NCBI RefSeq assembly: GCF_028641065.1
Contig: NC_073411.1
Location: 13,392,001-13,456,000, forward strand
Source: Leucoraja erinacea
Lineage: Eukaryota
Reading direction: 5' to 3'
DNA length: 64,000 nucleotides
Positions 7,781 to 64,000 of this stretch are shown in pieces. Numbering within the stretch: the first letter of the stretch is position 1; each line of letters begins with the position of its first letter. The notes below the pieces were generated by a model that was not told where the DNA came from, made no database searches, and saw only the letters and a program-made list of their open reading frames with translations. A program made the translations under genes and the position numbers.

Positions 7781-9464
7781 GATAACAAACCAATGGCAGT
7801 CAACTCAAGCCAACCACACACATCCTAAATGATCATCTCTGGATCATCTAGTCTGTCCCATGGAAATGACAGTTTGTGCACTAAAATCCTGTGTTGTGCA
7901 AGATAGCCCCATCTTGTTTCAAAGAACGTATCCTTCCATGTTCTGCGGCAAAATTATGAAGTTAAAAAGAAACTAATTTGTGCACGAGTAAAGTCATTCT
8001 GTTTAAGAGAAAAATGATTCTGTCTCCAAGAGAAAAGTAAGCGAGAGACAAACCTATGCTGTTGGTTTCAGAAAAATTCACCTTTCCCCACCCACAACAC
8101 ATACTTTTAACAACACGAGTAGAGGCGAAGCTCATGCCGTGGTCTGTAGGTTGTTTTGAAACCACATTAATGCGGAAAAACAAAATACTGTAGATACTTG
8201 TCTGAGATAAAACACAAATTTGTGACCACACTGTAGTCAGTCAGCATCTGGGAGGAGAGAAGCGGTCAACATTTCAGATTCCATGAGCTTTCATCTAACC
8301 TGAGGGGAGATGAAGAAATCTTAAGATACTGAGAAGGCAAAAGTTGATATGTGATCAGAAGAGATTAAAGGGTAAAAGAGCAATGTGAGATGGATGTGGG
8401 CCCCATATCTGAGGGAGGATGTGATTGATCCCAGGGATGTCTGGATCAACGTATGATGAGCGTTTGATGGTCCTCGCTGGAGTTTAGAAGAATGAGGGGG
8501 AACCTCATTGAAACATACCAAATAGTGAAAGGTCAGCATGAGTGGATGTGGAGGGAATGCTTCCACTAGCGTGAGAATCTAGGACCAGAGGGCATAGCCT
8601 CAGAATAAAAGGACATACCTTTAAAAAGGAGATGAGGACGAATTTCTTTAATCAGACAGTGGTGAATCTGCGGAATTCATTGCCACAGACGGCTGTGGTG
8701 GCAAGTCATTGTGTAATACAGAGATGAACAGATTAGGGGAGAATGGGATTGAGAGGGAAAGATAGATCAGCCAGGATTGAATGGCGGCGTAGACTCAATG
8801 GGCCGAATGTCCTAATTCTGCTCATGTGACTTGCAAACATGGGCGAATAGAAGAAGCAAGTCTGGAGGAGGTAAAATAGAGGAAGAATACATTTATCAGA
8901 AGATACCAAAGAAAAATTAGTTTGCTGGGAATGTGAAATGGAAAAGCCGGATTTATTGATTACCTGAAAGTGTTGAGATCAAGATCTAGTCTGGATCATT
9001 GTATGAATGAAGATATGAAAGATATTCTTTGTGATCCTGTTGAACATTGTTGCAGCATTGCAGGAGGTTAAATGTCGAGGTCAGAATGGAATTGAAACGA
9101 AAGTGAGAGAGGAAGGGAGGTTTGTGGTCAGCTTTGTGGTCGACTGAAGATCTGCACAGTAGTAATTTACAAATCTGCCCTGCAGAGGAAACCGCATTGT
9201 GGGCAATTTTTTGTGTGTGTGGGGGGGGGGGGGGGCAGGGGGAGGGGAGATTGTGGGCAACAGTAACAATGGGGGGGGGGGGGGGGGGGGGGAATATAGA
9301 TTCATAATTTTTCTACCTGGAGCATTTATTGAGATTTGGCAGGGAGAAGGGAAAAAGAGAGCTCTGCATCTCTGGTAAGGGGAAAAGAATTAGAGGGGAT
9401 GTATGGGAGACCATCTTCATCGGGAGAGTGGTGAGTACCTGGAATGCACTGCCTGAGAATAGAT

Positions 9465-9686
9465 GTGTTTAAGAAGGAACTGCAGATGATGGAAAATCGA
9501 AGGTACACAAAAATGCTGGAGAAACTCAGCGGGTGCAGCAGCATCTATGGAGTGAAGGAAATAGGCAACGTTTCAAACGTTGCCTATTTCCTTCAGTCTG
9601 AAGAAGGGTTTTGGCTCGAAACGTTGCCTATTTCCTTCGCTCCATAGATGCTGCAGCACCCGCTGTGTTTCTCCAGCATTTTTGTG
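9465..9686. mobile_element. Penelope-derived fold-back insertion
   Basis: Inverted arms with a hammerhead core at 9598-9625. TSD TGCCTGAGAATAGAT at 9450-9464 and 9687-9701. Confidence 0.8.
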
Positions 9687-9894
9687 TGCCTGAGAATAGA
9701 TTACTGATCTCCATACTTTTTCCAAGATCTGCCACAGATATGAGAGGCATATTCCAGAGAGCATAGAATAATGCTATTGCATGCCATTCTTTTCCCATTG
9801 ATAGTATTGTGATTTTGAGTGCACTTCAAATTATGGTTGGGATTAGGAAGTCTACTTTGTGTAAAGAATTGATACGAGTGCATAAACGTTATAA

Positions 9895-10114
9895 AGGGCC
9901 TGTCCCACTTATGCGATTTTCTTCGGCGACTTGCCGGCACCCGTCATAGTCGCAGCAAGTCTCCCAAAATTTTCAACATGTTGAAAATCCAGCGGTGACC
10001 AGAAAAAAGTACGAGTCTTTGGGCGACTACTCACGACTTTACACGCGACCTGCTTGCGACTATGACGGGTGCCGACAAGTCGCCCAAAAAAATCGCATAA
10101 GTGGGACAGGCCCT
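9895..10114. mobile_element. PIF/Harbinger-type MITE
   Basis: 26-bp TIR AGGGCCTGTCCCACTTATGCGATTTT with TAA TSD. A partial related end lies at about 27462. Confidence 0.8.
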
Positions 10115-10245
10115 TAACTCAGTGTATCCCTTTGGCTGCTTCTCTTGATATGAGTTAACCCTCAAATAAAACATGGCAGAACTCTTGAGAGTTCCATCAA
10201 AACGCAGAGAGTGTGGCTTACATTTGTTTTTTATTGTCCCATCAG

Positions 10246-14287
<4,042 letters not shown>

Positions 14288-17580: not shown

Positions 17581-17666
17581 AGTCTCATTGGAACAATTCA
17601 GATGGAATGGAGAATTACAGGAGATGGGGTTGGAGGAAGTAGTCAAACCAACTGGTGTTTATTATT

Positions 17667-17864
17667 GTTTAAGAGGGAACTGCAGATGCTGGAGAATCGA
17701 AGGTTACACAAAAAAGCTGGAGAAACTCAGTGGGTGCAGCAGCATCTATGGAGCGAAGGAAAAGTTAATTTCCATCAGTTCCAACAAGATTTGGACCCAT
17801 CCTCGACAACCAATCCTCTTTTATGGCACTTCTGCCTGCAACCGAGAAAGATCCAACTAATGTC
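17667..17864 (-). mobile_element. Penelope-derived insertion carrying an inverted copy of neighbouring genomic DNA
   Basis: Element end at 17667-17760, then 17767-17866, which is the exact reverse complement of 17053-17152. TSD CTGGTGTTTATTATT at 17652-17666 and 17865-17879. Confidence 0.8.
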
Positions 17865-18509
17865 CTGGTGTTTATTATTCCTTTGGGAAACCATTGCTCC
17901 ATCAGGATAGCTCGTTAATGCTATACAGTCCTACATTGCTATGCGTTATGAACCCTAATGCACGGTGTGAAGAAGGGTCGCGGCCCAAAACGTCACCTAT
18001 TCCTTCACTTCAGAGATGCTGCTTGTCCTGCTGAGTTACTCCAGCTTTTTGTGTCTTATGACATTGCAATCCTGATAGCAAATGTACAGCCTTTTAGAAA
18101 CAAGGAACTGCAGGTGCTGGTTTACAACACACAAAAAAAACGACAAAGTGCTGGAGTAACACAGCACCTAAGGCACATCATGCTGGAGAATATGGATGGG
18201 TGACAGCACTCATCTCTGGACTGATTATAGAGAGAAGAAAACTGCAAGGAATGGGCAGGACAGAGCCTGGCAAGTAGTAGGTTGATACAGTAGGTGAGAG
18301 GAGAAATGAAATGAAATGATTCAATTTATTGTCATTGTCAGTGTACAGGAGGGAGTTGGTAGGCAGATGGTTGGACAAAGGCCAGAGATGTAGAGGCAGA
18401 GGGTATGAGACAGACAACAGGATTGAAGAGTTGTGAATTGTGAAACTAGAGGAAGGAATGCAGGTGTACCGTGTCTCTGGGTGGCGCTGTTGGCAGGGGG
18501 TGGCCAGTG

Positions 18510-19284: not shown

Positions 19285-22200
19285 ATGTGCTGCCGCGGCG
19301 GCGGCGAGCGGGACCTGCAGGGCTCGGCAAGGCGGATGGGCGCCTCGCTGCTGCAGCAACTGTCGGCCCACGAGCGGGAGCTCGACCTCGTCTTCCTCGA
19401 CCACAGTTACGCCAAACCCTGGAGCGCGCACCCCGAGGCCGGCGGCTCCCGGCCCGCACGCAGGCTCTTCCTCACCCCGCGGCGGCACCCTGACAGCACC
19501 AGGTGAGGGGCCGAACGGCCGCGCCACCCCTTCCTCTCTCCCCACTCCCTTTCTCCTCTTCCCCCCTCCCTCTATCCCCTCCTCCCCTCATCTTTCCCCC
19601 ATCCCTCCCTCCCTCTTCCTCCCCCCATCCCTCCCTCCATCCTCTTCCCCCCATCCCTCCCTCCATCCCTCCTCCCTCTCCTCCCCCTCCCTCCCCACCC
19701 CCTCTCAACCTCCCCCCCCCTCTCCACCTCCTCCCCACCTCCCCTCTCTCCAAACTCCCCCACTCCCTCCTCTTCCCCTCCCTCCTCTTCCCCTCCCCTC
19801 CTCCCCCCCCCTCCCTCCTCTTCCCCCTCCCTCCTCTTCGCCCTCCCCTCCTCCTCCTCCCCCCTCCCTCCTCTTCGCCCTCCCTCCTCCTCTTCCCCCT
19901 TCCCTCTCCTCCCCCTCTCCATCCCCCCCTCCACCTCCTTCCCTCCCCTTCCCTCCCCCCTCCGCTTCCCCTCCTCCCCCCCCCCTCCCTTCCTCCCCCC
20001 TCCACCTCCTCCCTTCCTCCCCCCTCCACCTCCTCCCCATCTCCCCTCCATGCTGCCTGTCCTGCTGAGTTACTCCAGCATTTTGTGTCTACCTCTGAGG
20101 ATGATTTGCACTGGGGCATATAATGGATAGAAGGAATGGGTGACCTTTCGGGTCGAGACACTTCTTCAGTTTATTTCTAGCCGGTTCTGCTTTGTGTTGA
20201 TACCTGAATACATCTGAGCAACCTTGCGTTTTACAGCGACTGTGAGGTGTCTGTGGATGTGGAGACGGTAGTTCCAACACCGACCCCTCTTTACGACAAC
20301 CAGAAGGCATGGAGCGTGATGAATGAATGTGAGCGGCATGTCATCTTCGCCAGGTCAGACACGGACGCCCCGCTCCCACCTGACGACTGGGAGGAGCACA
20401 TCAGCAGGTAAGAGCTCCCCGTCACCACGTGGTGATCTCCGCGCACCTCGCCGGTAGATCGGTTACTGCATCGCTGTGCCTAGACCCACTCACTCCCCAT
20501 AGCCAACCAATCCCTGGTTCACAATCTCAAATCACGATCCAGGGGCCACAGTTCAAGAATAAGGAGTAAGCCATTTAGAACGGAGACGAGGAAACACTTT
20601 TTCTCATGGAGAGTTGTGAGTCTGTGGAATTCTTTGCCTCAGAGGGCTATGGAGGCAGGTTCTCTGGATGCTTTCAAGAGAGAGATAGATAGGGCTCTTA
20701 AAAATAGCGTAGTCAGGGGATATGGAGAGAAGTCAGGAACGGGGTACTGATTGTGCATGATCAGCCATGATCACATTGAATGGAGGTGCTGGCTCGAAGG
20801 GCCAAATGGCCTACACCTGCACCTCTTGTCTATTGTCAAAGTGCGCCACACTGTGGCGCAGCACCAGGGACCCAAGTTCCATCCTGACCTCGACCCCTGT
20901 CCGTGTGGAGTTTGTACATTTCTCCCTGTGACTGCGTGGGCTTCCTTCAGGTGCTCCAGTTTCCTCCCACATCCCAAAGACGTGCGGGTTTACAGGTTAA
21001 TTGACCCTCTGTAACTTGCCGCCTAGTGTGCAGGGGAGTGGATGTGAAAGTGGAATAACATCGAATGAGTGTGAGCGGGTGACACACACGCGTAGCGCAC
21101 TACTGGCCTTTCCCAGGGGGGGTCGGGCTGCTGCTCTGGAAACCTCACACTTGTTGAAGTAATCAAACAATAAAGACTTTGAAATCTAGAATTGTTGGGG
21201 ATTCTGGGTTTGAGATGAGGCTGTGGATTCACCAAGATCTAAATGGCAACTCTTGTGTGGTCCAATGTCTCACACTCTGGTACTTGGTACGAGTCTGCTT
21301 CATGTATGCTAGGATAGACACTGAACCTTATGCAGAAAATAATGCCACTGTGCTAGGGTACACATGACTGTAACGTCTGAAGATAGGTCTCGACCTGAAA
21401 CGTCACCCATTCCTTCTCTCCAGAAATGCTGCCTGTCCCGCTGAGTTACTCCAGCATTTTGTGTCTCTCTTGGGTTTAAACCAGCATCTGCAGTTCCTTC
21501 CTACACACTGACAGTGATGTACCGCTGACCCATTGAATGGTAGGTCAGGCGTGAAGACTGAATGGTCTCAGCTTGCTGTGCTGTGCCGCGTTACACTCAA
21601 ATCGGTTGCTGGAGTCAGAAGCTGCCGCCTCGCTGTCTGCGGCCCACCGCTCCCGTCTTCCCCGCGACACCGGGTGCTCGATGGCTGATCGCTGCTCCTG
21701 TCTCCGGCTCCACCTGACACATGGTCTCCCTCTTTCCCCCCCCCTCCAGATCAGGGTGGAGTGTGGCGCAGAACAAGCTGTTCAACAAAATCGTGAAGGT
21801 GCTGTACTCGGACCGCTTGGCCAGGCTGGCCAACGAAGGGGTGAGTGTGCGTGGTCAGCTGCCCCGGTTAATGTCGGCTCTCACTAACTCATGGATGGGC
21901 GAGAAGGGGAGGGGAGGGAGGGAGGGGGACACACACGGTCGACCAGAGCTGGCTAGCTGGATGCCTGGCACTGAGCCAGAGGCTTGGGTGTCTGACTGGG
22001 AGCGCCACATATTCTCCATATTACCTGCAAGATGGCAAGCAATGAAGTCCCCCCGGTTTTGGGAGACTGGGGGGGAAGCAAAGCACTTGGTAACGGGAGA
22101 CTGGGAACAATGATGTGCTCAGGTAGACAAAAGTGCTGGAGAAACTCAGCGAATGCAGCAGCATCTATGGAGCGAAGGAAATAGGCAACGTTTCGGGCCA

Positions 22201-25200
22201 AAACACTTCTTCAAACTGAAGGAAATAGGCAACGTTTCAGGCCGAAACCCGGAAGGGTTTCGGCCTGAAACGGTGCCTATTTCCTTCGCTCCACATAGAT
22301 GCTGCTGCACCCGCTGAGTTTCTCCAGCACTTTTGTCTACCTTCGATTTTCCAGCATCTGCAGTTCCTTCTTAAACACAATGATGTGCCCAGTTTGCTGG
22401 TGAGGAGCAGGCCCTGCCTTGCACCCCCTGCACTGCCGTGGATAGTTACTGCTCCCCTGATATCGGTGGTCACTGTGAGACCGGAAACTGTTTGCAGGCC
22501 AGCAACGAGCCGGTGCTACGGAGAATCGCAGTGGACAAGTGCGCTCGCCGCATCCGCCAGGCCCTGGCCAGCCTGAACTGGGACACCAAGCTGACGCAGT
22601 GGCTGCACACCACCCTGGTGGATACGCTCAGCCTCTCCATGCTGGCCGCGTACCTCGATGTCCTCCAGACCCTCAAGTGCAAGGTATGGATGGATGCTCC
22701 TGCTCCTCGCGCGCTGGCCCCACTGGGCTCCTCGCCCCTCTAGGACAGAGCACACAGTAATGTAAAAGGACACAGAGTGTTGGAGCAAGGGTGCCGACTC
22801 GAAACGTCACCTATCCAGAGTTCTCCAGAAATGCTGCCTGAGCCACTGAGTAACTCCAGTACTTTGTGTTCTGTTCCGAATGCTCTCTCTGAATGAGAGG
22901 TTTGCTCTGCTCCTACCTCCTTATCTTACTGGAATACACAGTTGGCGACTGCATGCAGACCCTGTTGCTGCCCTCTCGCTGTTAATCTCTCTGCCGTTTC
23001 CCGTAATGCCCAGTTTATTTAGGTGTCTAATGCCCAGAGGCTCTCTGTTCACCAAAGATCCTGTTCTGTTCCCTACACGCCCCACGTGCCGTCGGAACCG
23101 TGGTTTACTTGAGTTGACGGTGCCACCACGTGTTACCCTCATCCTCTGCTCCCTCTCTGGATGTTTTACTACAGCTGCCAACGCTGATCGATAAAATGAT
23201 CATCTCGTCCACGGCCAAGTCTGGGGCAGCCGGTGCCGAGGCCCTGCCCTTGTTGCTGAAGCGACCGTGGGATCCTGCTGTCGGAGTCTTGTCCCACAAC
23301 AAGCCCGTGAGTTACCCCGAGTCTGGTCCCACAACAAGCCTGTGAGTTACCCCGAGTCTGGTCCCACAACAAGCCCGTGAGTTACCGCCGAGTCTTGTCC
23401 CACAACATTCCCATGAGTTACACACAGGTCAGGGTGGCATCTAGGGGGATAAACACCTCTTGGAAATTTTGTGCGTCTGAGAAAAGGAATAGGGTCGAGA
23501 CTCTTTTTCCGACCCGAAACATACACCATTCCTTCTCTCCAGAGATACTGCCTGTCCCGCTGAGTTTCACCAGCATTTTGTGTCTACGTTCGATTCATAT
23601 TTGCAGGTCTTTCCCACACATTTTGACCACTACTTGAGGTTCAGTTTAGTTTAAAGATACAGCATGGCAATGGGCTCTGCCCCACCGAGTCCACATCGAC
23701 CATCGATCACCATGTTATCCCACTTTCTCACCCACTCCCTACACACCATTGACCTGCAAATACACACGCCTTTCGAATGTGGAGGGAAACCGGAGCACCC
23801 GGAGGAAACCCACGCGGTCACAGTGAGACGGTGCACACAGATAAGACCCTGTCGGGTTTTAATGCTTGTTCTCTCCCCGGCAGACTAAGGTCCCAGGTGC
23901 CCCATTGCTTCTCATCGCTCCTGGCGGCCCCACGAATAACATGGCCTCTGCCTCACGCAGGACCCGATTCTGGTTGTCCCAGCTGTCCTGTTTGGGAAAG
24001 GTCAGTGGTGTGTGTGTGTGGTGTGTCTGTTTGTGCTGTGTGTGTGTGCATGCGTGTGTGTGTGTGCGCACGCGTGTTTGTGCTGCGTGTGTGTGCGCGC
24101 GCATCTCTGTCGGATGGGGAGAGGTGATTGATCACCTTTAGTGTGTCGGCTTGGCTGGGCTGGGCTGGGCAGTAACAACGCCTTCATTCAGGGTGGGGAG
24201 GAGGGGTTGGGGTGATGAGGGATTGAGAGGGGGCAGATGTTGGGAATAGGGAACATAGGGTGCGTGGAGGAGGGGGCTGCTGGCAGGGTTGGGGCAGAGT
24301 GTGGAGGGGGGGGGGGTGCAATTTGTTTACATGGGGCAGTAGGGACCCCGTGTGGGTGGGGGCAGCCCCAGGAGTTGCCTGCGGTGCTGTGAGTGTGTGT
24401 GTGTGTGTCTGGGGGGGATGGGGAGGGGACGGTCAGGCTGGCCGCGGGCTAAGGTGTGAGTGCTGCGTGTCAGGTTCGGGTGTGAGTGGTGAGGGTCAGG
24501 GTAGAGTCGGTGTCGAGGGTGGGGCTGGCCGTGGGCGCGAGTGTGACCACTGTTCCTTGTCCTACAGGTAATCCCGGTCACCATGCACATTGTCAACGGC
24601 GGCTCTGGAGTGAGCGTGTCCCAGTGCCTGGAGCACATGATTGGGGCCGTCCGCACAAAGGTCCTGGAGGTTGGTGCTGCGATCGATGCTCCACTTAGTG
24701 ACCACAGGGGCCCCATGGAGCCTGAACCCACACAGTCCGATAATCCCACTGTCTGTCTGCTCATGGTCATTCTAAGAACATAGATCAAGTCAAGTCACTT
24801 TTATTTACGTAGCACATTTAAAAAACAACTCTCGTTGGCCAAAGTGCTTTACATTGGTAGTACATACATAAATACATACATATAGCCCTCACTCAGAGGA
24901 CATCTGAGATCATAAAATAGGTGCAGAATTAGACCATTCGGCCCATCGAGTGGGCACGCCATTTGATCATGGCTGATTTATTTTACCCTCCCATCCCAAT
25001 TCTCCTGCCTTAACGCCATAACCTTAGATACCTTTACTAATCAAGAACCTGTCAATCTCCATTTTAGAAATATCCATTGACTTGGCCTCCACTGCCGTAT
25101 GTTGCAATGGATTCCGCAGATTCACCACCTTTTGGATTAAGACATTTCTCCTTATCTCATTTTATTCTGAAGCTGTTCCCATCTGGTCCTAGACTCTCCC

Positions 25201-28200: not shown

Positions 28201-31200
28201 ATTTTAGGGGCAACCTTCTCTCTGCACACTGTGTAGTTTACTTTAGTTAATTGTCAAGATTCAAGAGAGTTTATTGTCATGTGTCCCTGATAGGACAATG
28301 AAATTCTTGCTTTGCTTCAGCACAACAGAACATAGTAGGCATTGACTTCAAAACAGATCAGTGTGTCCATATACCATTATATAAATATATACACACATGA
28401 ATAAATAAACTGATAAATAACAGATAATGGGTTATTAATGTTCAGAGTTTTGTCCGAGCCAGGTTTAATAGCCTGATGGCTGTGGGGAAGCAGCTATTCC
28501 TGAACCTGGTCGTTGCAGTCTTCAGGCTCCTGTATCTTCTACCTGAAGGTAGCAGGGAGATGAGTGTGGCCAGGATGATGTGGGTCCTTGATGATACTGC
28601 CAGCCTTTTTGAGGCAGCGACTGCGATAGATCCCCTCGATGAAAGGGAGGTCAGAGCCGATGATGGACTGGGCAGTGTTTACCACTTTTTGTCGTCTTTT
28701 CAGTGTTCCAAGTGTACGTCATGAAGAAACGCCACCCATTCCTTCTCTCCAGAGATGCTGATTGTCCCATTGAGTTTCTCCAGCATTTTGTGTCATATAG
28801 TTGGGAGGTCATGTTACAATTGTTTAAGACATTGCTGTGGCTACGTTTAGGGTATTGTGTTCAGTTTTGGTCACCATGTTATAGGAAAAGTGTTTTAAAG
28901 CTGGAAAAGGAGCAGAGAAGCACTTCTGCATCTGCAGTTGCTGCCTCCGTATCTTGGGAGGAGTTGTTGATAGCCCCGCGTTCATTGTCCATCTCTTCAC
29001 CTCAGGATGAAATAGGCGACTTCCTGACCGGTGTGCTGACCAAGAGCGAGTCGCAGGCGGGTTTTGAGGCCAAGGAGGTTGACCTGGACAAGAAGAGGAG
29101 ATGTCGGGACACGCGGCGGGACTTGGCCTTCGAGCTGTCGGAGAGGAACAGCCGGCCCGCGTCCCCGTTCAGCCGCGTCCCGGTCTCTCCCTCTGGCTCA
29201 GAGGTGAGTCGCGTGACATTCACCCCCCCCCCCCCACCCCATCCCCGAGCTCACTGACCTGCTCCCAGTCGCCCATCGCACTCCTCTCCTCCGGCTCTGT
29301 GATCAGTAGCGAAGGCCGTGGGTTCAAACTGTGCCGTCTCTGCACACCCCCCCTCCACTGCAGAAGTAGAGTTGCTGCCTCACAGCGCCGGAGACTCGTA
29401 CTCCATCCTGGCCACGGGTGCTGTCTGTAAGGACTTTGCACGTTCTCCCCGTGAACTGTGTGGGTTTTCTCCGGGTGCTCCGGTTTCCTCCCACATTCCA
29501 AAGACGGCAGGTTCGCCAGTTAATTGGCTTCTGCAAAGCGCAAATTGACCCTAGTGTGTGTCGGACAGTGCTAGTGTACATGGTGATCGCTGGTCAGCAG
29601 GGCTTGGTGGGCCGAAGGGCCTGTGTCCACGCTGTATCTCTAAAGTGTAAAAATCCCCCAAAACTAACCAGCTGAGTTTTCCTAGGTAGACAAAAATGCT
29701 GGAGAAACTCAGCTGGTGAGGCAGCATCTATGGAGCGAAGGAATAGGTGACGTTTCGGGTCGAGACCCGAAACGTCACCTATTCCTTTGCTCCATAGATG
29801 CTGCCTCACCCGCTGAGTTTCTCCAGCATTTTTGTCGATCTTCAATTTTTCCAGCATCTGCAGTTCGTTCATAAACAGCTGAGATTTCCTCGTGGACTTT
29901 TGCCAATATTCATGCATCAGCCAACAGCCTGACAAGATGATTACCCTGCCATGATTACATTGCGTTTTCTGTAAATTCACACAGTACATACAGTTATCCT
30001 TGGCACATCCAGCATTTAGTGCCGGCCTCAAACTGCCCAGGAGACGACACAAGACGTCTAAAGGCTTCAAATCACTTCATCCAATGGGCACAATGACGAC
30101 TTCAAAACACATTTGGGCAGATATGTGGATAATTTAGTTTAGAGATACAGCGTGGAAACAGGCCCTTCGTCCCGCCAGGTTCGTGCCGACCAGCGATCCC
30201 CTCACATTAACACTACCCTACGCACATTAGGGACAATGTTGGATTTATACCAAGCCAATTAGCCTACAAACCTGCACGTCTTTGAGATGTGGGAGGAAAG
30301 TGGAGCACCGGAGCAAACCCACGCACGTCACATGCAAACTGGTCACGTGGAGCTCGGATTCAGCCGCGGGCGGGACTTACTTACCATCACCCGCCGGGGT
30401 CCCAACATCGGAAGCCTGGATCGCCTCAGCGCAGAGGGAGAATAAGGAGGGAAGAGACAAGGACTTTCAGACTTTTGCCTTCCATCACAGTGAGGAGGTG
30501 CCTGGTGAACTCACTGTGGTGGATGTTAAACCTGTGTTTATTGTGTGTTTTGTTATCTTATTCTATGTTATGACTGCAAGGCAAAATGAAATTTCGTTCA
30601 GACTGAAAAGTCTGAATGACAATAAAGGAACACAATACAGCTCAGTACAGGCAACACCAGTGGTCAGGATCCAACCCGGGTCTCTGCCGCTGTGAGGCAG
30701 CAACTCTACCGCTGCTCCACCATGCCAGCAATTGAGCGGTAAAGGCCAAAATGCAGGCAAATGGATCTCGGCCAGTTTGCCGCCATTGTTGGTCAGCATG
30801 GAGGTGGTGGGCCGAAGGGCCTGTTTCTGTGCTGCACAGCTCCTTTAATGTCTAACGTTGTTGAACCCTGTGCAGGGAACGTCGAGCGTGTCGAGCAGCC
30901 CCACCTCCAGCCCGAAGACAAAGAGCGCGTCCCTGTCCCTGTCCCCGGCCCAGAAGGCCAGCCTGATCACTGCCACGGCCACCGCTGCCAGCCAGTCGCC
31001 CAGCCTCTCCGCCCAGTTCTCACACATCCTCAAACAGCACATGCAGAAGACCGGCACTGTCCTCACCCAGAAACAAGCTCAAGGTAATCACTGCTTCTCT
31101 CCCCATGTTGGTGGAGTCTAGAACCAGGGGATACTATTTAAGAATAAGGGGTAAGCCATTTAGAACGGAGACAAGGAAACACTTTTTCACACAGAGAGTT

Positions 31201-42800: not shown

Positions 42801-45800
42801 GGCTGAAGAGTCCCGACCCAAAATATATTCTGTCCACAGCCACCACACATGCTGCCTGACCCCCTGAGTTCCTCCAGCACTTTGTGTTTTGCTCAAGATT
42901 CCAACATCTGCAGTTCCATCTCTCAGATCATAGTAATTAATTCGATTACCAAGTGGCAAAAAAGAAGGCTCATTTTTTGTTGCTCCTGACAACCCAGATG
43001 TGAAAACTCTTAATGTTGTAACCAATTCACTGCAACCGACATTGCACCACACACAGAAAGCAGGCTTTAAACGCCAACATTACACCTACTTCATGCCTGC
43101 TTGTGTCGCTGCCCCCGACTGTCAGAGTAATTACTGTATAAACCGCTGCAACATGGAAAATTGCAACATTTCCTTTCCACAACTCTGGAGAACGGTTGCT
43201 ACTGCAATCGTTCCCCCCGTTCCAACCGACAGGACTTTGGAAGCTTGACCTTGCCTCATTCGAGTTTAGTTTGGGAAAGTTTATTCTCAATTTAAAGCCT
43301 TAAGGAGTTCAAAATATCTCCATGATGATAGATTGGACAGCCTCAGATCATGAGTGCATTGTGAAAGGTTTGTTCTGACAGGAAATAAAGAAATACCAGC
43401 TGTGGTCTAAACACTGACTCATCCAACCATGGGCCCAAAGCCTNNNNNNNNNNNNNNNNNNNNNNNNNNNNNNNNNNNNNNNNNNNNNNNNNNNNNNNNN
43501 NNNNNNNNNNNNNNNNNNNNNNNNNNNNNNNNNNNNNNNNNNNNNNNNNNNNNNNNNNNNNNNNNNNNNNNNNNNNNNCACAACGATGTTCTCTGCTCTC
43601 CCGTGTAGCTCTCGTCACTCTAGGTCCCAGGAACATCCTCTATAGGCAGGGGCAATCTCAGTTGTGATGGACTCAAGTTTACAATTCAGGTGCCAAACGT
43701 GCAGACAGAGAACAAAGACTCCTCCACCTGCCCTCGGTTGCAGACCAGGCACGATACACGGCTCCCTCTGTCACCAAGGCTGGCCACCTGACAAAATGCA
43801 GTACGTAGAATGCGCAGTCATGGCAGTGTGCAGGATCCGTGACCAAACTAGCAATCTAGAAATCAGTTTCATTTGCATTCCCACCATGCATAAACCTTTG
43901 TTAAAGCAACAATATCAGCAATGATAACCACGAGATCACCACAATGGCGTGTGGTCCAGCCAGCCGACCCACACCAACACAAGCAACCCTCTGTACCTTC
44001 CACAAACTGCCTCACGTCTATGTTAAAACCTCGCCGTAGGTACAATGGTCAGACCACCAACCCCAGCACCAGACACGGATACGGAAAACTTGGTCACTAC
44101 TAAAGACCTCCTTACAAACATCTGGGGACAGGTGTCTAGATTACAAACATCTGGGGACAGGTGTAAATATCCGGGGACAGGTGTCTAGATTAGTATCACT
44201 TGTCATGTCAAACTCACAGGCAACATGCAGAACCTCTTTACCGCGGGTGGGGCCACAGTCAGAGCCATCACACGTGGTGGTCCAGCTAACCCTCAACACT
44301 GCCTTGTACCCCAGCTCTACTGCCTTTAGATGAAAGGTGAACAGAAACCTGGTGTTAACCGCTCAGCTGATGGATAAATAATGAATGCTGAACATCAGTG
44401 ATACGAACAGAGGGGATTTCATGGTAGTTTATTGTTACTTGTACTGAGGTACGGTGAAAGGCTTTCTTGTTGGGATTCTAGCTGATGGACTTCAATATTC
44501 AATAGACATAGCACCAGTGCACATCCGCCACGTGCCAGATGAGGTCTGTGGTGAGTGAACAGTCACAGAATGAATGGGAGGTAGGCAAAAGTGCTGGAGA
44601 AACTCAGCGGGTGCAGCAGCATCAATGGAGGTAAGGAAATAGACCCTAGGGATTTGGCCCGAAACGTTGCCTATTTCCTTCGCCCCATCGATGCTGCTGC
44701 ACCCGCTGAGTTTCTCCAGCACTTTTGTCAACCTTCGATTTTCCAGCATCTGCAGTTCCTCCTTAAACAAAATGAATGGGCACAGCCCTGGTGGGGACTG
44801 ATGTCCCAATTCCACATCTCTACCCTGTTGCGAGGCACAAACCACACAGCAAGTGCCATGAATTCAGCAGACATCCAAGTTCCCACAACAGCTTCCATGG
44901 GCACCAGCATTGTTTTCCCACTGCAACCATTAACCTCACAGCCCAGTATATCCTTGCTCCCACCCTGATTACCATGAAGCCACACAAGCACCCTGGTTCA
45001 CCAGGATCACCAGAGGGAGATGCCATCGTGCAGATTCACAGCAAGAGCAGCATGCAGGAGACAGAGCTCCGTGTCGCAAACAACAACGGCTCCGACCAAA
45101 CCTCAGTGGCCTTACCCTTCCAGCCGTGAAAGATGGCGGGCAATTTAACACCCGTGGCAGCAGCTCCAAAGAAATGGTGGGCAGTTCAGCAGGGAAGTGG
45201 CATGGCGACTGCAAAGCCTTTCCAATCGTGTTTAGCCAGAAACGCTGAGTCTATGATCCATTGCAATTTCTTCATGATAGTTCATGATAATATTCTATAC
45301 TCCACAACCTCCTCTCCCCTCAAACCCATCCCTCCACCACCCAAACCACCCTGCCAACTCTCTTCACCCCTCACTTCCCCATCCCCACACCCTCCCTCAT
45401 GTTTGTCCTGCCCTGGTCCTCACCCTCCCCATGGTCCTCCCATCTCCCCGCTCCTGGTCCATCCACCGCCTCCACTATGGTCCTCCCAAACACCCCCCCC
45501 CCCTTCCCCTCCTCTCAGGGTCCTCCCCCCCCCCCCATGGTCCTCCCACCTCTTCCTCTATGGTCCTCCCAAAAATACCCCCCCCCCCCCCAGGGTCCTC
45601 CCACCCCTTCCTCTATGGTCCTCCCAAACCCCCCCCCCCCCCTCTCCCTCCCACCCTCATGGTCCTCCCACCCCTTCCTCTATGGTCCTCCAAAACACTC
45701 CCTCCCCCCTTCCCCCCCATGGTCCTCCCCCACCCCCACCTCCTCCTCCTCGGGCGCTTCACCTCCTATTTCCGCCGGGTGACCTTCAGGCCCGGGCCTA

Positions 45801-47012: not shown

Positions 47013-47373
47013 ACACAGAAACTAGGTGTAGGACAGGAGTAGGCTATTTGGCCCTTCCAGCCACCACCCCCATTCAATATGATCATGGCTGATCATCCAC
47101 AATCAGTACCCCGGTTTCGGCCCGAAACGTTGCCTATTTCCTTCGCTCCATAGATGCTGCTGCACCCGCTGAGTTTCTCCAGCATTTTTGTGTACCTTCG
47201 ATTTTCCAGCATCTGCAGTTCCTTCCTAAATACATCAGTACCCCTTTCCTGCTTTCTCCCCATATCCCTTGATTCATTTAGCCCGAAGAGCTAAATCTAA
47301 CTCTCTCTTGAAAACATCCAGTGAATTGGCCTCCACTGCCTACTGTGGCAGAGAATTCCACAGATTCACAACT

Positions 47374-48160
47374 CCTCCAACCTCATCTACTGTAGCCGCT
47401 GTTCCAGGTGAGACCAAGCGCAGGCTCGGCGATGGTTTCGCCGAACACCTCCGCTCAGTCCGGCTACTAAACCTAATGGACAATAGAGGAGCCGGCGTGG
47501 GGGGACCGTTGTGGAGGGGGGGAGAGAGGGAAGAACAACGGGGGACATGGCACGGGGGTACTTTGTAACTTAGTAATCACCCTTTATGTGTCGACTATTT
47601 GCATATCTTGGGTGTGCAAGCAAAGAATTTCACTGTGAATTGTCACATGTGACAATAAAGTATTCATTCACCTCCTGATTGCCAACACTTCAACTCCCCT
47701 TCCCATTCCCACAAAGGGCCGAGATGGCCTGTTTCCGTGCTGTAATTGTTATATGGTTATATGACCTTTCTGTCCTGGGCCTCCTCCACTGTCAGAGCAT
47801 AGTTCACTTGCGCAGCTTACACCCCAGCGGTATGAACATTGACCTCTCTAACTTCAAGTAATCCTTGCTTTCCCTCTCCATCCGTCCCGCATCCGAGTTC
47901 TCCGACCAGTCTGACTGTCCTCCTGATTCATTTTTATCTCTGTATGTTTCGTTGTCACCTTCTCCTAGGTAACAATAAGCTGCTCTACAATTTCCTTGTT
48001 ACATCCCCTTTGATGTCTTGGTTTCACAACTTACACTTCCTTATCTCCGTATCTCCTCCTCCCACGACTCAGCGTGAAAAAGGGTATTGACCCGAAACGT
48101 CACCCATTCCTATCCGGAGATGCTGCCTGTCCCACAGGGTTACTCCAGCTTTTTGTGTCT
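47374..48160 (+). mobile_element. Degenerate Penelope-like retroelement 3' part (GIY-YIG endonuclease remnant plus terminal repeat)
   Basis: Peptide remnants SNLIYC..RC, GETKRRLGDGFAEHLRSV, HFNSPSHSH and DLSVLGLLHCQS...SLHPSGMNIDLSNFK* (stop at 47861). They are followed by a pyrimidine-rich tract and a decayed hammerhead-like motif at about 48073-48102. A further piece, AQCKLEEQNLIFRLG, lies at about 48451-48496. Confidence 0.8.
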
Positions 48161-50504
48161 AATGTTTGAGAAGGAACTGCAGATGCTGGAAAATCGAAGG
48201 TACACAAAAATGCTGGAGAAACTCAGCGGGTGCAGCAGCATCTATGGAGCGAAGGAAATAGGCAACGTTTTGGGCCGAAACCCTTCTTCAGTCTGATGGG
48301 GTGTTTCACTTAGACCAATCTTGGCTAAAAGACAACAAATATCACTTGAAATCTAGAATTGGAAGAGATTAATTAACCTGAGATGATGCTCTTTGCTTTT
48401 AACATTGGCGCCAGAGTGGAATGTGTTCTCGACATTGAACTATTCAGACAGGCCCAGTGCAAATTGGAGGAACAGAACCTCATATTTCGCTTGGGTGATA
48501 TCAATGCCGAACAAGATGCCAGATTAAACTAGTCTCTTCTGCCTGTCCCATACCACTCCATCGTCTGAATCCCGACGATCCGTGGCCTATCCCCAACGGC
48601 AGGCGTGGTTCGGGCACCACTGAGACCCGGGTTCGATCCTGACTCTCGGTGCAGTCTCTATGGAGTTTGTATGTTCTCCATGTGACTGCCTGGGTTTTCT
48701 CCAAGATCTACGGTTTCCTCCCACACTCCAAAGATGTATGAGTTTGTAGGTTAATTGGCTTGGTATAAGTGTAAATTGTCCCTAGTAGTAGGACAGAGTT
48801 AATGTGCGGGCATCACTGGTCGGTGCGGACTCGGTGGGCTGAAGGGCCTGTTTCCAAGCTGTATCTGTAAACTAAAAAAAAAAAATATATATATATAAGG
48901 TTGGGTCTCTTCCTCATCCAGCAAACAAGAGAGAGAAAAATAGTTTTGCACTATTATGGTGATGGTCTGGTTATGCAGTATTACTGATTATTAATTTCCT
49001 GACATCGATTATCGTATATTTGTTTGTGTATTTTGCATTAACGGGTCTGTTAAGCTGCAGCAAGTCGCAATTTAATTGTTCCCTTGCCAAGTTCATATGA
49101 CAATTAAAAACTCTTGACTCTCGATAAATGAGTGCAGGCATCACTTTTCCGAAGGCCTGGACAGGGTGGCTGGGGCAATATTCACCTCCATGGGCAAGGG
49201 GAGGGGTAACAGATCCCCTCTGCGGGTGAGGGGTGTGCGGGGCCGAGACTCAGTCCCCCCCAATGACAAGGGGCTGGTGGTGGGAATGAGGGGAGGGGTT
49301 CCATATCTCCATCCACACAAAGGCCGTCATTGTATACAGCTTAAACTGGCAGCTCGTTCCAGATACAGACTACCCTCCAAGTGAAAAGGTTGCCCCTGAT
49401 GTCCCTTCTTAAATCTCTCCCCTCTCACCATAAGCATGTGCCCTCTAATTTTAGACCCCGGGGAAACGAGTGTGAATGTTCCACATTAGACAATAGACAA
49501 TAGACAGTAGGTGCAGGAGTAGGCCATTTGGCCCTTCGAGCCAGCACCGCAATTCAATGTGATCATCCCTAATCCGTACCTCGTTCCTGCCTTCTCCCCA
49601 TATCCCGACTCCGCTATTTTTTAAGAGCCCTATCTAGCTCTCTCTTGAAAGCATCCGGAGAACTGGCCCCCACCGAGGCAGATAATTCCACAGACTCACC
49701 ACTCTCTGTGAGAAAAAGTGTTTCCTCGTCTCCGTTCTAAATGGCTTACTCCTTATTCTTAAACTGTAGCCCCTGGTTCTGGACTCCCCCAACATGGGGA
49801 ACATGTTTCCTGCCTCTAGTGTGTCCAAGCCCTTAACAATCTTATATGTTTCCACATTATCCATGAGGGTGAAGGAGATGGAGGAAAGGGTTTATCCCTC
49901 ATGAGAGGTGCAGGCTGATCTTCAGGGACAAGATTCATGGAGCATTACAACAGTTCCCTCCCTCCACACCGACCAAGGTGCCCATCTAAGCTAGTCCCAA
50001 TTGTAAGTAGTAAGTCCAAAAAGTAAGGAGCCTTGTGTGTGTAGGAAGGAACTACAGATGCTGGTTTAAATCGAAGATGGAATAAAAATGCTGGAGCAAC
50101 TCAGCGGGACAGGCAGCATCGACCCGAAATGTCACCCATTCCTCCTCTCCATTGATGCTGCCTGTCCCGCTGAGATACTCCAGCATTTTGTGTCTATCTT
50201 CGGTTTAAACCAGCACCTGCAGTTCCTTCCTACACACACATGGTCCATGTTTGATCAATTTCCCTCTGAAGGGTGTGATTCCATTGGAAAGGGCGCAGAG
50301 GAGATTCACCAGGATGTTACCCGGGCCTGAGAGGTTGGACAGGCTGGGCCTTCTTAGGAGGCTGAGGCGTCGTGACCTTATTGAGGTGCACAAGATCATG
50401 AGGGGCACGGTGGAGGTGAACAGTCTTCACCCTACCATAGGTAGACAAAAATGCTGGAGAAACTCAGCGGGTGCGGCAGCATCTGTGGAGCGAAGGAAAT
50501 AGGC

Positions 50505-50532
50505 AACGTTTCGGGCCGAAACCCTTCTTCAG
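50505..50532 (-). ncRNA. Minimal hammerhead ribozyme core, second subfamily
   Basis: The minus strand reads CTGAAGA-A-GGGT(TTCG)GCCC-GAAA-CGTT, with a UUCG-capped stem II and a GUU triplet. Confidence 0.65.
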
Positions 50533-51399
50533 AATTATTTTGATTTTCCAGCATCTGCAGTTCCTTCATGACCATTCCACCCTCCCACAGTTACCCGACC
50601 AGACACAACTAAATTGAAGGTAGCTCTTTTTTCCCCCCAAGAACCCTCTTTTGCTTAAGTCCACCCTCCACCACCTCCAGTTTAAATTCCATTTGGAATA
50701 TTTTTGGAGGACCAGGAAACCAAGAACCAAGAACACTCACAGTCTTTTTCTCCAGCGTAGAGGATTCCAAACTAGAGGGCACAGGCTTCAGGTGAAAGGG
50801 GAGAGATTTAAGAGAAACCTCAGGGGCAACATTTTCACTCAGAGGAGGCGTCTATATCTGGGGCAAGCTGTCAGAGGAAGCTGTTGAAACAGGTTCAATA
50901 ACGACTTTTATTTGGACCGAGGTACTGATGGGAAGGATTTAGAGAGAGGCGGGGGAACTGCAGATGCTGGAATCTTCAGTAAAAAAACCCCACAAAAGTG
51001 CTGGAGTAACTCAGTGGGACAGGCAGCTTCTCTGGGGAAAAAGGATAAGTGTCGTTTTGGGTCGGGACATTTCTTAAGACTGAAGAAGGGTCCCAATCTA
51101 AAACCCATCCATGTCCTCCAGAGATGCTGCCTGGCCCGCTGAGTTACTCCAGTACTTTGTCTCTTTTTACCCAAGGATTGAGAGGGATATGGGCCAAATG
51201 GTACTTCTAGCCCAGAATGGCAACCTGGTTAGCATGGACAAGATGGGCCGAAGGGCCTTTGTCTACGAACTGGAGGAGGGGGGATTATTTTCACTGTCTG
51301 AAGCAGATTGGTGGGTCTTTAAGAGGCTGGCTGCTGGAAGGGGGGTGGGGATTGGAGACGGAGGGAGGTGTTTACCCGCTCAGGGGGCGTCTCGCTGCC

Positions 51400-52845: not shown

Positions 52846-52997
52846 GGTGGACAAAAAACTGGAGAAACTCAGCGGGTGAGGCAGCATCTATGATCTATGA
52901 TCTATGCAGCATTCATAGATGCTGCCTCAACCGCTGTCTTTCTCCAGGTTTTTGTCTACCTTCGATTTTTCCAGCATCTGCAGTTCTTTCTTAATCA
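52846..52997. mobile_element. Penelope-derived fold-back insertion
   Basis: Inverted arms with (TCTATGA)n at the turn. TSD TTAAATGTAATAT at 52833-52845 and 52998-53010. Confidence 0.75.
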
Positions 52998-58812: not shown

Positions 58813-58897
58813 GGAAACTGGCAAACGTGGTCCATTTGTGCACAAGGGCAGCGGGGGGAAGCGTGGAAGGGGAGCTGTTCAACATCAAGATTAATGG

Positions 58898-59028
58898 TAG
58901 ACAAAAGTGCTGGAGAAACTCAGCGGGTGCAGCAGCATCTATGATGATCTATGATGCTGCTGCACCCGCTGAGTTTCTCCAGCACTTTTGTCTACCTTCG
59001 ATTTTCCAGCATCTGCAGTTCCTTCTTA
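58898..59028. mobile_element. Penelope-derived fold-back insertion
   Basis: Inverted arms. TSD AACATCAAGATTAATGG at 58881-58897 and 59029-59045. Confidence 0.8.
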
Positions 59029-59959
59029 AACATCAAGATTAATGGACTTGGAAAGCCAAAGATGAATCAGTGACTGCCAACGTGACTTTGTGAAGGGCAG
59101 ATCCTGTCTGACCAATTTGATTAAATTCTGTGCAAAGTTAATAAAAGTGATGCGCGGTCTGCGCAATAGGAGTGGACTTTATTTGACAACCTGTTCGACA
59201 AGTTCAGCTGGTTGGAGCACATGGGTTCCATTGGCTAAATTTGATCCACTAGCTGAGAAATAAGGAACTGCAGATTCTGGTTTGCAAAAAAAACAACACA
59301 AAGTGCCGGAGTAATTCAGCGGGTCAGGCAGCATCTCTGGAGCGAAGGATTAGGCGACGTTTCGGGTCGTCTTAAGAAGGGTCTCGACCCGAAACGTCGC
59401 CCATATCCTTATCTCCATGGATGTTGCCTCACCCACTGAGTTACTCCAGCATTTTTGCCTACCTTCGATTTTTCCAGCATCTACAGTTCCTTCTTAAACA
59501 AGAGTCATTCAGCGGGCCAGGCAGCAGAAAACTAGAAGACAGAGTTTGCCCTTGACTCATACTCGCAGCATGGTCGTCACGAGGTCGTAGGAGGTCGTAA
59601 GTAGGACGTGGCATCAAGTCGGTCGGGCGTTTTTACTAACATAATGGAGGACAAGGGGTCACAGCTTAGGGATAAGGGGGAAATCCTTTAAAACCGAGAT
59701 GAGAAGAACTTTTTTCACACAGAGAGTGGTGAATCTCTGGAACTCTCTGCCACAGAGGGTAGTCGAGGCCAGTTCATTGGCTATATTTAAGAGGGAGTTA
59801 GATGTGGCCCTTGTGGCTAAAGGGGATCAGGGGGGTATGGAGAGAAGGCAGGTACGGGATACTGAGTTGGATGATCAGCCATGATCATATTGAATGGCGG
59901 TGCAGGCTCGAAGGGCCGAATGGCCTCCTCTTGCACCTAATTTCTATGTTTCTATGATT

Positions 59960-60240: not shown

Positions 60241-60269
60241 ACTTTGGTGCCGCCCACACTGCTTGAACT

Positions 60270-60540: not shown

Positions 60541-60999
60541 CCCGCCCGCGGCTCCCGGTCTCTCCCCCCCACCTCCTCTCTAATTCTATCCCCTCTCCCT
60601 CTCCCTTCCCCTCTCTTCCCCCCGGGGAAGTAGCAACACCGAATCCTCCCACCGTCTCCTCTGAGCTTTTGTTGTTTTTTTCCTTCAGCAGCGCCGCCAA
60701 TTGCATCATCGCCCATTCACTCACTGCCCGCCCTCCGGGAACCCCCCACCCCCCCCATCTTAACGCGGACCTTCCTCTCCCGAGCCCCCCCCCCCCCCCA
60801 TCCCATCTCAACTGCCCCCCCTACTCTTGCCTCTCCACCACCCCCCCCCCCCCCCCCCCCACTCTTCTCCCCCCCCCCCCCCTCTTACCCCCCCCGCCCC
60901 CCCAACTCTACCCCCCACCCCACTCTTTCTCCCCCCCCCACTCCCCTCCACCTCCCGAATTGTGCTCAGTTAATGAATGAATTAGAAGATTTGTTTGTT

Positions 61000-61226
61000 T
61001 AAGAAGGAACTGTAGATGCTGGAAAATCGAAGGTAGACAAAAGTGCTGGAGAAACTCAGCGGGTGCAGCAGCATCTATGTGGAGCGAAGGAAATAGGCAA
61101 CGATTCGGGCCGAAACCCTTCAGGAAGGAAATAGGTAACGTTTCGGGCCGAAACGTTGCCTATTTCCTTCGCTCCACATAGATGCTGCTGCACCCGCTGA
61201 GTTTCTCCAGCTTTTTTGTGTACCTG
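61000..61226. mobile_element. Penelope-derived fold-back insertion
   Basis: Inverted arms. TSD AGAAGATTT(G/A)TTTGTT at 60984-60999 and 61227-61242. Confidence 0.8.
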
Positions 61227-62707
61227 AGAAGATTTATTTGTTCAGTTTTTATATTATTGATAGTTGCTCCCAACATTTGAGTATATTGGTGGTGGGAAAC
61301 GTAACTTAACAGAAGATTGAGGGGGGATCTTATAGAAACTTACAAAATTCTTAAGGGGTTGGACAGGAAGATTATTCCCGACGTTGGGGAAGTCCAGAAC
61401 AAGGGCTCACAGTTTAAGGATAAGAGGGAAGACTTTTAGGACCGAGATGAGGAAATCATTTTTTTACACAGAGAGTGGTGAATCTGTGGAATTCTCTGCC
61501 ACAGAAGGTAGTTGAGGCCACAGTTCATTGACTATATTTAAGAGGGAGTTGGATGTGGCCCTTGTGGCTAAAGGGATCAGGGGGTATGGAGAGAAGGCAG
61601 GGATGGGATACTGAGTTGGATGATCAGCCATGATCATATCAAATGGCGGTGCAGGCTCGAAGGGCTGAATGGCCTACTCCTGCACCTATTTTCTATGTTT
61701 CTATGTAACATTTAATTGACATAATGATACCTTACTGCCCACAAATAAAAACTGAGAGTAAAATATTGCAAAAATGTAAATTCTGATTTGTGGTTTGCGC
61801 GATGAAGGGGGATAGATTGCTGAACACGTTTTGTTTTTGTAAAATAATCTAAAGCACTTTGTGGTCCGGGTGCATTTTGAACAGCGAACTCAACCTCCAA
61901 TTATTTAAACCTAGCTATTGAATGAATCATTTGGTTTAAACAATAATAATTGAGTGATGATATTGTGCAATTGTGTAGTGTATTAATTATATAATAACAG
62001 TGGGCGTTGTTGCAAAGCGGAAATGCAACTAGTAATGTTGTGTGTGGTATGAGTGATCACCAGAGCAAGTACCTTGTGGAAATAATCAGCAGATATTGCC
62101 ACTTCCTCTCCAGGCCCGCCACTTGTTTTATGTATATTTTTTTTAATTGTCACTGTATGTCATGTTGTCACTTGCGGGCAGGGCACCAAGGCAAATTCCT
62201 TGCATGTGAATACTTGGCCAATAAACTTATTCACTTACCATTGACCAGAACACATGGGCCACTCTACACCCAGGTCACAAGTTGACAAGTTCCCACACAA
62301 GAGATTAGTGTGCAAAACTTGAGCACATGGTATTCGTTTTGTTGTTTGTCTTTTGCACAAAAGTCCGCGAGCATTGCCACTTTCATTTCACTGCACATCT
62401 CGTATGTGTATGTGACAAATTGACTTGACTTGACTTGGTGGTAGGGTATTGACATGGGATAGATTGGCAGACAGGAAGCAAAGAGTAGGAATTAACGGGA
62501 CCTTTTCAGAATGTCATGCAGTGACTAGTGGGGTGCCGCAAGGCTCAGTGCTGGGAACCCAGTTATTTATAACATCCATTAGTGATTTAGACAAGGAGAA
62601 TTAAAAGTTAAAGTAACATCTTCAAGTTTGTGGATGACACAAAGCTGAGTGGCAGTGTGAGATGCAATGAGAATGCTATGAGGCTGCAGGGTGACTTGGA
62701 TAGATAG

Positions 62708-62936
62708 TGTGTTTAAGAAGGAACTGCAGATGCTGGAAAATCGAAGGTATACAAAAATGCTGGAGAAACTCAGCGGGTGCAGCAGCATCTATGGAGCGAA
62801 GGAAATGGGCAACGTTTCGGGCCGAAACCCAGAAGGGTTTCAGCCCGAAACGTTGCCTATTTCCTTCAGTCTGAAGAAGGGTTTTGGCCTGAAACGTTGC
62901 TTATTTCCTTCGCTCCATAGATGCTGCTGCACCCGC
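62708..62936. mobile_element. Penelope-derived fold-back insertion nested in a CR1 RT fragment
   Basis: Inverted arms with a hammerhead core at 62871-62898. TSD TGACTTGGATAGATAG at 62692-62707 and 62937-62952; removing the insert restores CR1 LQGDLDRL. Confidence 0.8.
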
Positions 62937-64000
62937 TGACTTGGATAGATAGGTTGGGTGAGTGGGCAGATTGCAGTATAATGTGGATAAATGTGAGGTT
63001 ATCACCTTTGGTGACGAGAACAGGAAGGCAGATTATTATCTGAATGGCGTCAAGTTGGGGAAAGGGGAGGTACAACGAGACCTGGGTGTCATCACCTCTC
63101 CATCTTCTAGAGTTGCTGCCTGACCCGTTGCATTACGTAAACATGGAACATACAGCACAGGAAGTCTTATCTGCCTGCACATCCCTTCAATTCCCTGCAT
63201 ATACATAGAAACATAGAAAATAGGTGCAGGAGTAGGCCATTCGGCCCTTCGAGCCTGCACCGCCATTCAATATGATCATGGCTGATCATCCAACTCAGTA
63301 TCCCATACCTGCTTTCTCTCCATACCCACTGATCCCTTTAACCACAAGGGCCACATCTAACCCCCTCTTAAATATAGCCAATGAACTGTGGCCTCAACTA
63401 CCCTCTGTGGCAGAAAGTTCCAGAGATTCACCACTCTCTGTGTGAAAAATGTTTTTCTCATCTCGGTCTTAAAGGATTTCCCCCTTATCCTTAAACTGTG
63501 ACCCCTTGTCCTGGACTTCCCCAACATCGGGAACAATCTTCCTGCATCTAGCCTGTCCAACCCATTAAGAATTTTGTAAGTTTCTATAAGATCCCCCATC
63601 AATCTCCTAAATTCTAGTGAGTATAAGCCAAGTCTATATCCGGCATATCCATGCGCCTCTCCAGTATCTTAAATGCCACTATCGTATCTGCCTCCACCAT
63701 CATCCCTGGCAATGTGTTCCAGGCACCCACCTCCCTCTTGTGTGGGGGGAAAAAATATCTGCATATCTCCTTTAAACCTTGCCCCTCTCACCTGAAAGCT
63801 GTGCCCTCGGGTATTTGATATTTCTACCCTGGGGGGGAAAGATTCTGGCTGTCTACCCCATCTGTGCGGCTCATTAGTTGACAAAATTCTATCAAATCAC
63901 TCCGGCGTTGCTGAGAAAGCTATCCAAGTCTTTTTATTTTTCATTTCACTGCACGTCTCGTATGTGTATGTGACAAATAAACTTGGCTTGACTTGAAGTC

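Follow-up and report, generated by a model that had tools for sequence, protein, structure and literature searches.

Hairpin insertions of a Penelope-like element terminus in Leucoraja erinacea: counts that favour two primings at insertion

Our analysis concerns a family of short hairpin insertions found in a 64,000-nucleotide stretch of the Leucoraja erinacea genome (RefSeq assembly GCF_028641065.1, contig NC_073411.1, positions 13,392,001 to 13,456,000), which in its full 64-kb length we call the window. The hairpins consist of two inverted arms, one with a tail and one without, enclosed by a target-site duplication (TSD), and they are 3' stumps, namely insertions of the terminus of a Penelope-like retroelement (PLE) of Neptune type that lack the 5' part. 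Our counts further suggest that the hairpins are probably built at insertion by twin priming, in which two opposed nicks each prime a short complementary DNA (cDNA) on element RNA.

We number the element on its sense strand, position 0 (P) being the final base of ...GTACC, upstream positions being negative, and the tail end (D) lying at P+36. On these coordinates a hammerhead-like core, CUGAAGA, occupies -92..-86 and a 15-nt imperfect palindrome -82..-68, with its centre at -75. Searches of the 2.19-Gb genome for further copies returned kilobase-long ones that run from a reverse transcriptase (RT) through a cysteine-rich linker and a GIY-YIG domain to exactly the terminus of the hairpin family; P or D is the endpoint in 28 of the 30. 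Their translations contain an RT with the DKG motif, of PLE type, followed by a C-terminal GIY-YIG; the RVT_1 match (E = 0.0016) lies under the Pfam cut-off and the GIY-YIG match (E = 1e-4) over it. The element protein has 273 homologues, the best match being a shark protein (66%). In loci L013 and L023 a CxxxRCxxC-type stretch precedes GIY-YIG, and by the criterion given for Neptune and Nematis in PMC8557442, a cysteine linker motif, this points to the Neptune clade. As for the autonomous partner that an earlier reading of the window from its letters alone (the sequence-only reading) had called for, every long copy seen is broken, and in 30 RT-bearing loci and in the longest 5'-reaching copy we found neither a full-length element nor a terminus at the 5' end. 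That longest copy (L110, L311) holds a long 27-nt tandem array within the N-terminal part of the element, and arrays of this type also occur on several small contigs. On the antisense strand at P, the untailed arm starts AAG-GTA(C/G), which resembles the splice donor consensus, possibly by chance.

How are the two ends of a hairpin chosen? We surveyed 1.664 Mb, comprising the window with 200 kb of neighbouring sequence, six 200-kb blocks picked around earlier matches and so non-random, and twenty 10-kb samples taken from large contigs at round-number coordinates. The 3' ends of 339 young arms are bimodal, falling at P or at D, 36 nt apart, and no common sequence continues past the tail in 141 tailed arms. 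Among young inverted pairs, 63 of 66 join one D end to one P end (2 are DD, 1 is PP), where independent choice would give about 50% (p about 5e-16), and this excess means that the two ends are coordinated; for pairs of all ages the count is 105 of 131. The TSDs noticed in the window hold up beyond it, with a TSD score of at least 10 in 45 of the 66 young pairs against 0 of 300 shuffled flank pairs. They are 10-19 bp long, 14-15 bp in 39 of 73, with an A+T content of 64% and no strong target motif, and for 18 of the 73 sites (22 matches minus 3 simple repeats and 1 self-match) we found an intact paralogous host repeat with a single TSD copy. TSDs flank 19 of 72 lone arms ending at P and 17 of 62 ending at D (control 0/300); since lone P arms carry TSDs as often as lone D arms, P is an end even without any hairpin.

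The depth and the content of the arms add further constraints. In 13 of 50 pairs (16 were listed, of which 3 proved to be parser artefacts) the arm without a tail extends further into the element than the tailed one by 8 nt or more. The difference is about 550 nt in L020 and grows to about 1 kb in both L072 and L080. Three of the 72 lone P arms, two of them with a strong TSD, have a tail-only partner arm, which duplicates nothing, and so does L065. Sixty-one subfamily variants are common to both arms, against a permuted mean of 19 and maximum of 32, and arms diverge by 3.2% within an insertion as against 5.5% between insertions, so both arms normally come from one source. Density is uneven, with eight hairpins in the window, 45 TSD-confirmed pairs in the whole survey and 3 in the 200 kb of large-contig samples; the sequence-only figure of more than one hairpin per 10 kb is therefore a local density. 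Extrapolated roughly from this small count, the genome-wide number is on the order of ten thousand.

Where the arms turn is informative as well. The sequence-only reading held that the turn differs in every copy, which is true within the window and fails genome-wide, where 11 of 66 pairs, about 187 bp long, share one turn at the palindrome and a 33-mer across this turn has 1,463 exact matches (reversed control none); the other 55 pairs turn elsewhere. We classified 40 hot-spot copies, the first 20 matches listed for either of two contigs: 37 are D+P (0 DD, 0 PP, 3 unclassifiable) and a TSD flanks 29 (control 2/300). Copies with this turn belong to three subfamily backgrounds or more, and among 35 independent ones no variant confined to one arm is seen more than twice, so we regard the turn as a hot spot rather than a lineage. 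With local duplicate loci that share insertion and TSD (L299/L301, L300/L302, L027/L028) dropped beforehand, the centre base in these 35 copies is of tailed-arm type in 18 and of untailed-arm type in 17. In mutation-free copies of two subfamilies the counts are 14:16 and, among the matches listed (100 of 179) on contigs C1-C20, 17:11, pooled 31:27; the second centre base is found in just 5 of 130 linear copies. In the 35 copies the centre base seemed to go with the subfamily (p = 0.002), an association that failed to replicate genome-wide and was dropped. Outside the hot spot, 16 simple junctions have a mean overlap of 0.6 nt where the null gives 0.67. Many junctions repeat a 33-34-nt unit (-85..-52) one to four times, as in the C36 sample (L211-L230) and in window copies 22122 and 60996, with repeated jumps back to -52. 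G>T or C>A changes adjacent to the centre are enriched in hairpins and are seen as well in 12 of the 77 one-mismatch matches listed; they may reflect faulty repair during insertion or damage suffered later by an extruded loop.

In the mechanism that we propose, the GIY-YIG domain would nick both strands about 14-15 bp apart, one nick priming at the tail end D and the other 36 nt further in, at P, mostly on one RNA or on two RNAs from one source. Both cDNAs would stop early and be joined head to head, and fill-in would create the TSD. Because cDNAs of the same polarity can pair only through a palindrome, the 15-nt palindrome of the hammerhead motif would be the hot spot for this joining; away from it the cDNAs would be end-joined, either bluntly or with short fillers. 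The hairpin structure argues for by-products of an autonomous element rather than a short interspersed element (SINE) with a master of its own, and, more speculatively, the SINE-sized copies would be run-off products of that element and no separate non-autonomous family. A wider proposal, which we advance tentatively as somewhat short of an even bet, is that two-site twin priming is obligate in PLEs, a single complex presenting both RNA start sites, 36 nt apart, to nicks spaced 14-15 bp: the tail would be the primer spacing and the inverted pseudo-long terminal repeat (pLTR) the second cDNA, and for a terminus near the RNA 5' end the two cDNAs, about 95 and 131 nt long after run-off, would pair via the hammerhead palindrome, seeding the ten thousand or so hairpins without a non-autonomous master.

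As to the association with hammerhead ribozymes made in the sequence-only reading, a putative minimal hammerhead can be recognised by eye in the terminus, with CUGAAGA, one unpaired base, a short stem II, GAAA and a palindromic CGU. PMC4209133 describes minimal hammerheads in PLE termini, with dual ones in Schistosoma lying 100-700 bp apart on opposite strands; our motif matches this description, with a stem I of just about 2 bp. Only 3 of the 8 hairpins in the window, and 13 of the 66 pairs of the survey, extend as far as the core, which the hot-spot turn excludes as most hairpins do, and an Rfam scan of three loci gave no hammerhead family at the motif; a ribozyme that functions in most copies is not supported. 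We considered the cleavage site (about -64) as the main 5' end of the template and rejected it, since 0 of 36 TSD-confirmed lone arms start between -70 and -51. In 21 of these 36 the start lies between -90 and -100. There TCAGTCT (-97..-91, e.g. L002:1501-1507), which fits the initiator consensus, lies within an imperfect palindrome of 9 nt that follows closely on a C-rich tract, and we speculate that the pile-up may mark the RNA 5' end.

Could a hairpin instead arise from a single priming? The sequence-only reading favoured cDNA snap-back, or a self-templated second strand, and in a fuller version, which joins this idea to the published suggestions, one priming at the tail end would yield a cDNA that snaps back, the endonuclease would resolve the product at the inner site, and deletions and flips of the apex would come later. 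This would make D+P pairing automatic by construction and would account for the matching arms, for the commonest turn sitting at a palindrome and for the extra mutation at the apex. However, it leaves unexplained the fixed inner start, seen in TSD-bearing lone P arms as frequent as lone D arms, the untailed arms that reach up to 1 kb deeper, and the tail-only partners. Moreover, if the tailed cDNA folded back, every hot-spot copy should have the sense base at its centre, and we observe near-equal bases, the untailed-arm centre being present in half of the mutation-free hot-spot copies. Most private mutations are not common to the two arms either (69 asymmetric differences in 35 copies), which indicates that exchange between arms is uncommon, and ordinary junctions lack excess microhomology. 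Simple snap-back thus fits poorly as the main route, and we judge the fuller version improbable. A milder departure, which we also think unlikely though less so, keeps twin priming to set the ends and lets one cDNA fold back and copy itself before the other anneals, the RNAs perhaps differing within an asymmetric dimer; this is a variant of twin priming and not an alternative to it. It can account for concordant arms with no need of a single common RNA, for the occurrence of both centre bases, for a hot spot at a natural fold-back site, and for the window copy at 60996, where an inner 2-nt insertion is shared and three outer sites are discordant. Yet ordinary junctions show no microhomology excess, tail-only partners require no fold-back, and discordant arms are few, the outermost site included (3/46).

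That the hairpins are made anew at each insertion and are not a lineage of miniature inverted-repeat transposable elements (MITEs) was the other part of the sequence-only proposal, and here the data bear it out. A single 187-bp hairpin master, or a handful of them, copied whole in the manner of a MITE or SINE, would suit the abundance of a single size class with an identical turn, but that class spans several subfamily backgrounds and both centre types and has no fixed arm-specific variant, 55 of 66 pairs turn elsewhere, TSD length varies, and linear and kilobase-long versions end identically. With no diagnostic arm-specific variants, a MITE lineage is refuted for the bulk of the copies, and a one-sided 36-nt tail with TSDs of 10-19 bp rather than of fixed length is not MITE architecture; we give masters of this kind very little credence.

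Twin priming itself faces several difficulties, which we gather here. The proposal rests on sequence, and its in vitro analogue belongs to a different clade. Asymmetric arms could arise from later apex deletions and the 50:50 centre base from later apex flipping; the argument against flipping from subfamily bias is lost, there being no genome-wide replication, and transversions beside the centre are enriched in hairpins (4/10 against 4/130 in linear copies, p = 0.0008), so the apex is not inert. Allele sharing between arms fits snap-back equally well. Discordant arms occur (window copies 60996 and 22122; 3 of 46 pairs at site -4), and a strict one-RNA model does not explain them. Our strict search gave no TSD at 98 of 134 lone arms; a wider one added 13 (control 1/100), leaving 85 of 134 without a TSD either way. 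As for the 5' stop between -90 and -100, stalling at the palindrome there or at the C-rich tract is an equally possible cause, and the run-off step is unsupported by anatomy because no full-length copy with a terminus at its 5' end was found.

We now turn to the copies in the window. The 35-nt tail has 9 matches there against 0 in 100 shuffles, and comparison of the window with itself gives 26 local inverted matches. The eight hairpins and the single-armed copy of the sequence-only reading, each with its own direct repeat, are all present, and seven of the eight were recovered as a tailed and an untailed arm flanked by direct repeats of 12-19 bp, which contain mismatches in three cases. At 9466..9690 (- strand, tailed arm at left) the untailed arm reaches -95 and the tailed arm -72, with a short duplicated piece between them and the 15-bp TSD TGCCTGAGAATAGAT. 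The copy at 22122..22377 (+), with arms to -95 (untailed) and -87 (tailed) and an additional 33-nt unit, has a 2-nt insertion confined to the tailed arm and the 12-bp TSD ACAATGATGTGC. A related subfamily is represented at 29685..29877 (+; turn -79/-77, direct repeat 19 bp with 2 mismatches), followed by 44580..44769 (+; turn -62/-85, 5-nt filler, TSD 14 bp with 1 mismatch), 52846..52997 (+; both arms to -47, short repeated filler, 13-bp TSD TTAAATGTAATAT) and the smallest hairpin of the window, 58896..59032 (+; turn -47/-43, 9-nt filler, direct repeat 17 bp). At 60996..61224 (-; TSD 16 bp, 1 mismatch) the inner 2-nt insertion is common to both arms, the three discordant sites toward the outer end are linked subfamily sites, and the predicted fold has -155 kcal/mol (z = -21). 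The last hairpin, 62710..62942 (-; 16-bp TSD), lies within another repeat, and its short arm begins about 22-27 nt inside the usual start. The lone tailed arm at 47113..47233 (+) starts at -83 and has the TSD ATCAGTACCCC. At 50436..50575 (-) an untailed arm to -93 is joined to an inverted tail-only piece, so nothing is duplicated; its direct repeat is weak (10 bp, 1 mismatch). At 17663..17864 (-) a tailed arm to -59 gives way to roughly 100 bp of unrelated DNA, and one 15-bp direct repeat encloses both (17663-17879).

The window also contains a decayed, interrupted GIY-YIG remnant (47369..48158, +), an older relative, whose own terminus at 48069-48158, in sense behind it, is 74% identical to that of the young family. 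The tie to Penelope elements that had been drawn from this remnant is sound as regards the long RT and GIY-YIG copies ending in the terminus, and not as regards the remnant: the same terminal sequence does not follow it, the 95%-identical copy at 48163..48301 (-) being a separate lone tailed arm of the young family in the opposite orientation, around which no TSD was found. Older, diverged subfamilies form the same kind of hairpin, for example at 12629-12739, 33161-33357, 37296-37404, 40234-40340, 50031-50243 and 50995-51158. A test of public contigs for empty orthologous sites was dominated by repeat contigs; 4 of 4 runs gave the joint skipping 62698-62948, which likely derives from paralogous copies of the host repeat, and two short contigs hint at the 58896 insertion in two other organisms, below our bridging criterion; neither is used as evidence. 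Unrelated to the family is a 220-bp imperfect palindrome at 9894-10115 with ends AAGGGCCTGTCCCACTT, likely a DNA-transposon-derived element. Of host genes, a scan of 80 of the 152 long frames in the window gave one Pfam match, a single-frame G-protein-coupled receptor, and demonstrated no intron of the kind that the sequence-only reading supposed. This open frame (53671-54846, +; 392 aa) encodes a neuropeptide Y receptor of the Y1 group, its best solved match being Y1 (E = 4e-119), and the 52846 hairpin sits about 670 bp upstream of it.

The value of this family lies in counts that constrain the PLE mechanism, the overall arrangement being already in print. The family is young and numerous enough that any mechanism of PLE integration must reproduce its 95% D+P pairing, its 14-15-bp stagger, either base at the hot-spot centre and its tail-only partners. 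The origin of the inverted repeats and one-sided tail of PLEs is called open in PMC8557442, and the first in vitro study, PMC11167929, likewise leaves the mechanism unresolved. Twin priming, if true, would explain the long-unexplained pattern of one long and one short end in the PLE group. Neither a twin-priming reading of PLEs nor this hairpin family was found in literature listings, most subscription papers, Dfam and Repbase being beyond reach, and the family may already be catalogued in one of these two databases. Automatic annotation will misfile such copies as MITEs or ribozyme SINEs.

In L1 twin priming, reportedly described by Ostertag and Kazazian in 2001, both nicks are said to prime on element RNA and so to yield an inversion within one TSD. 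The tail-only partner arms seen here resemble the non-overlapping product of that process; in L1 the position of the second site varies and the two parts have no sequence in common, whereas here the second site is fixed 36 nt away and the cDNAs usually overlap, giving a hairpin. The non-LTR retrozymes (bioRxiv 10.64898/2026.07.22.740005) are likewise short, non-coding and PLE-terminus-derived, with a hammerhead-like motif. However, they consist of directly repeated units in tandem, each containing a complete ribozyme, and our hairpins are inverted, dispersed and mostly without the catalytic core; we rejected this identity in view of the inverted units, the 13 of 66 pairs that reach the core and the internal 33-nt repeats (-85..-52) that lack it.

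The Anolis carolinensis Poseidon protein, according to the accessible text of PMC11167929, cuts and extends both strands in vitro and has two RNA starts that flank the tail, which agrees with the twin-priming reading. The likeness to our family extends to a hammerhead just upstream, a putative one in our case, and a predicted dimer, although Poseidon is of a different clade, its start sites are not tied in that text to the arms of inverted insertions, and its open reading frame begins inside the hammerhead, where in L. erinacea no copy with a 5' terminus was found. Closest of all in anatomy are the PLEs with inverted pLTRs (Penelope/Poseidon, Neptune and Naiad, PMC8557442 Fig. 2; Adineta Pen2a, PMC3846280), for which these papers describe an inverted 5'-truncated copy, a one-sided tail of 30-40 bp, a TSD and palindromes at the inverted junction. 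They thus share with our family the head-to-head truncated copies, the tail at one end, the TSD, the junction palindromes, the DKG RT and the C-terminal GIY-YIG. The L. erinacea copies differ in being mostly terminus units of 90-350 bp, in being very numerous, and in having TSDs mostly of 14-15 bp where the Adineta examples have 8-10 bp. In print such elements have been read in terms of self-priming (PMC3846280) or of endonuclease-mediated resolution of the tail (PMC8557442), whereas the counts presented here favour two primings.

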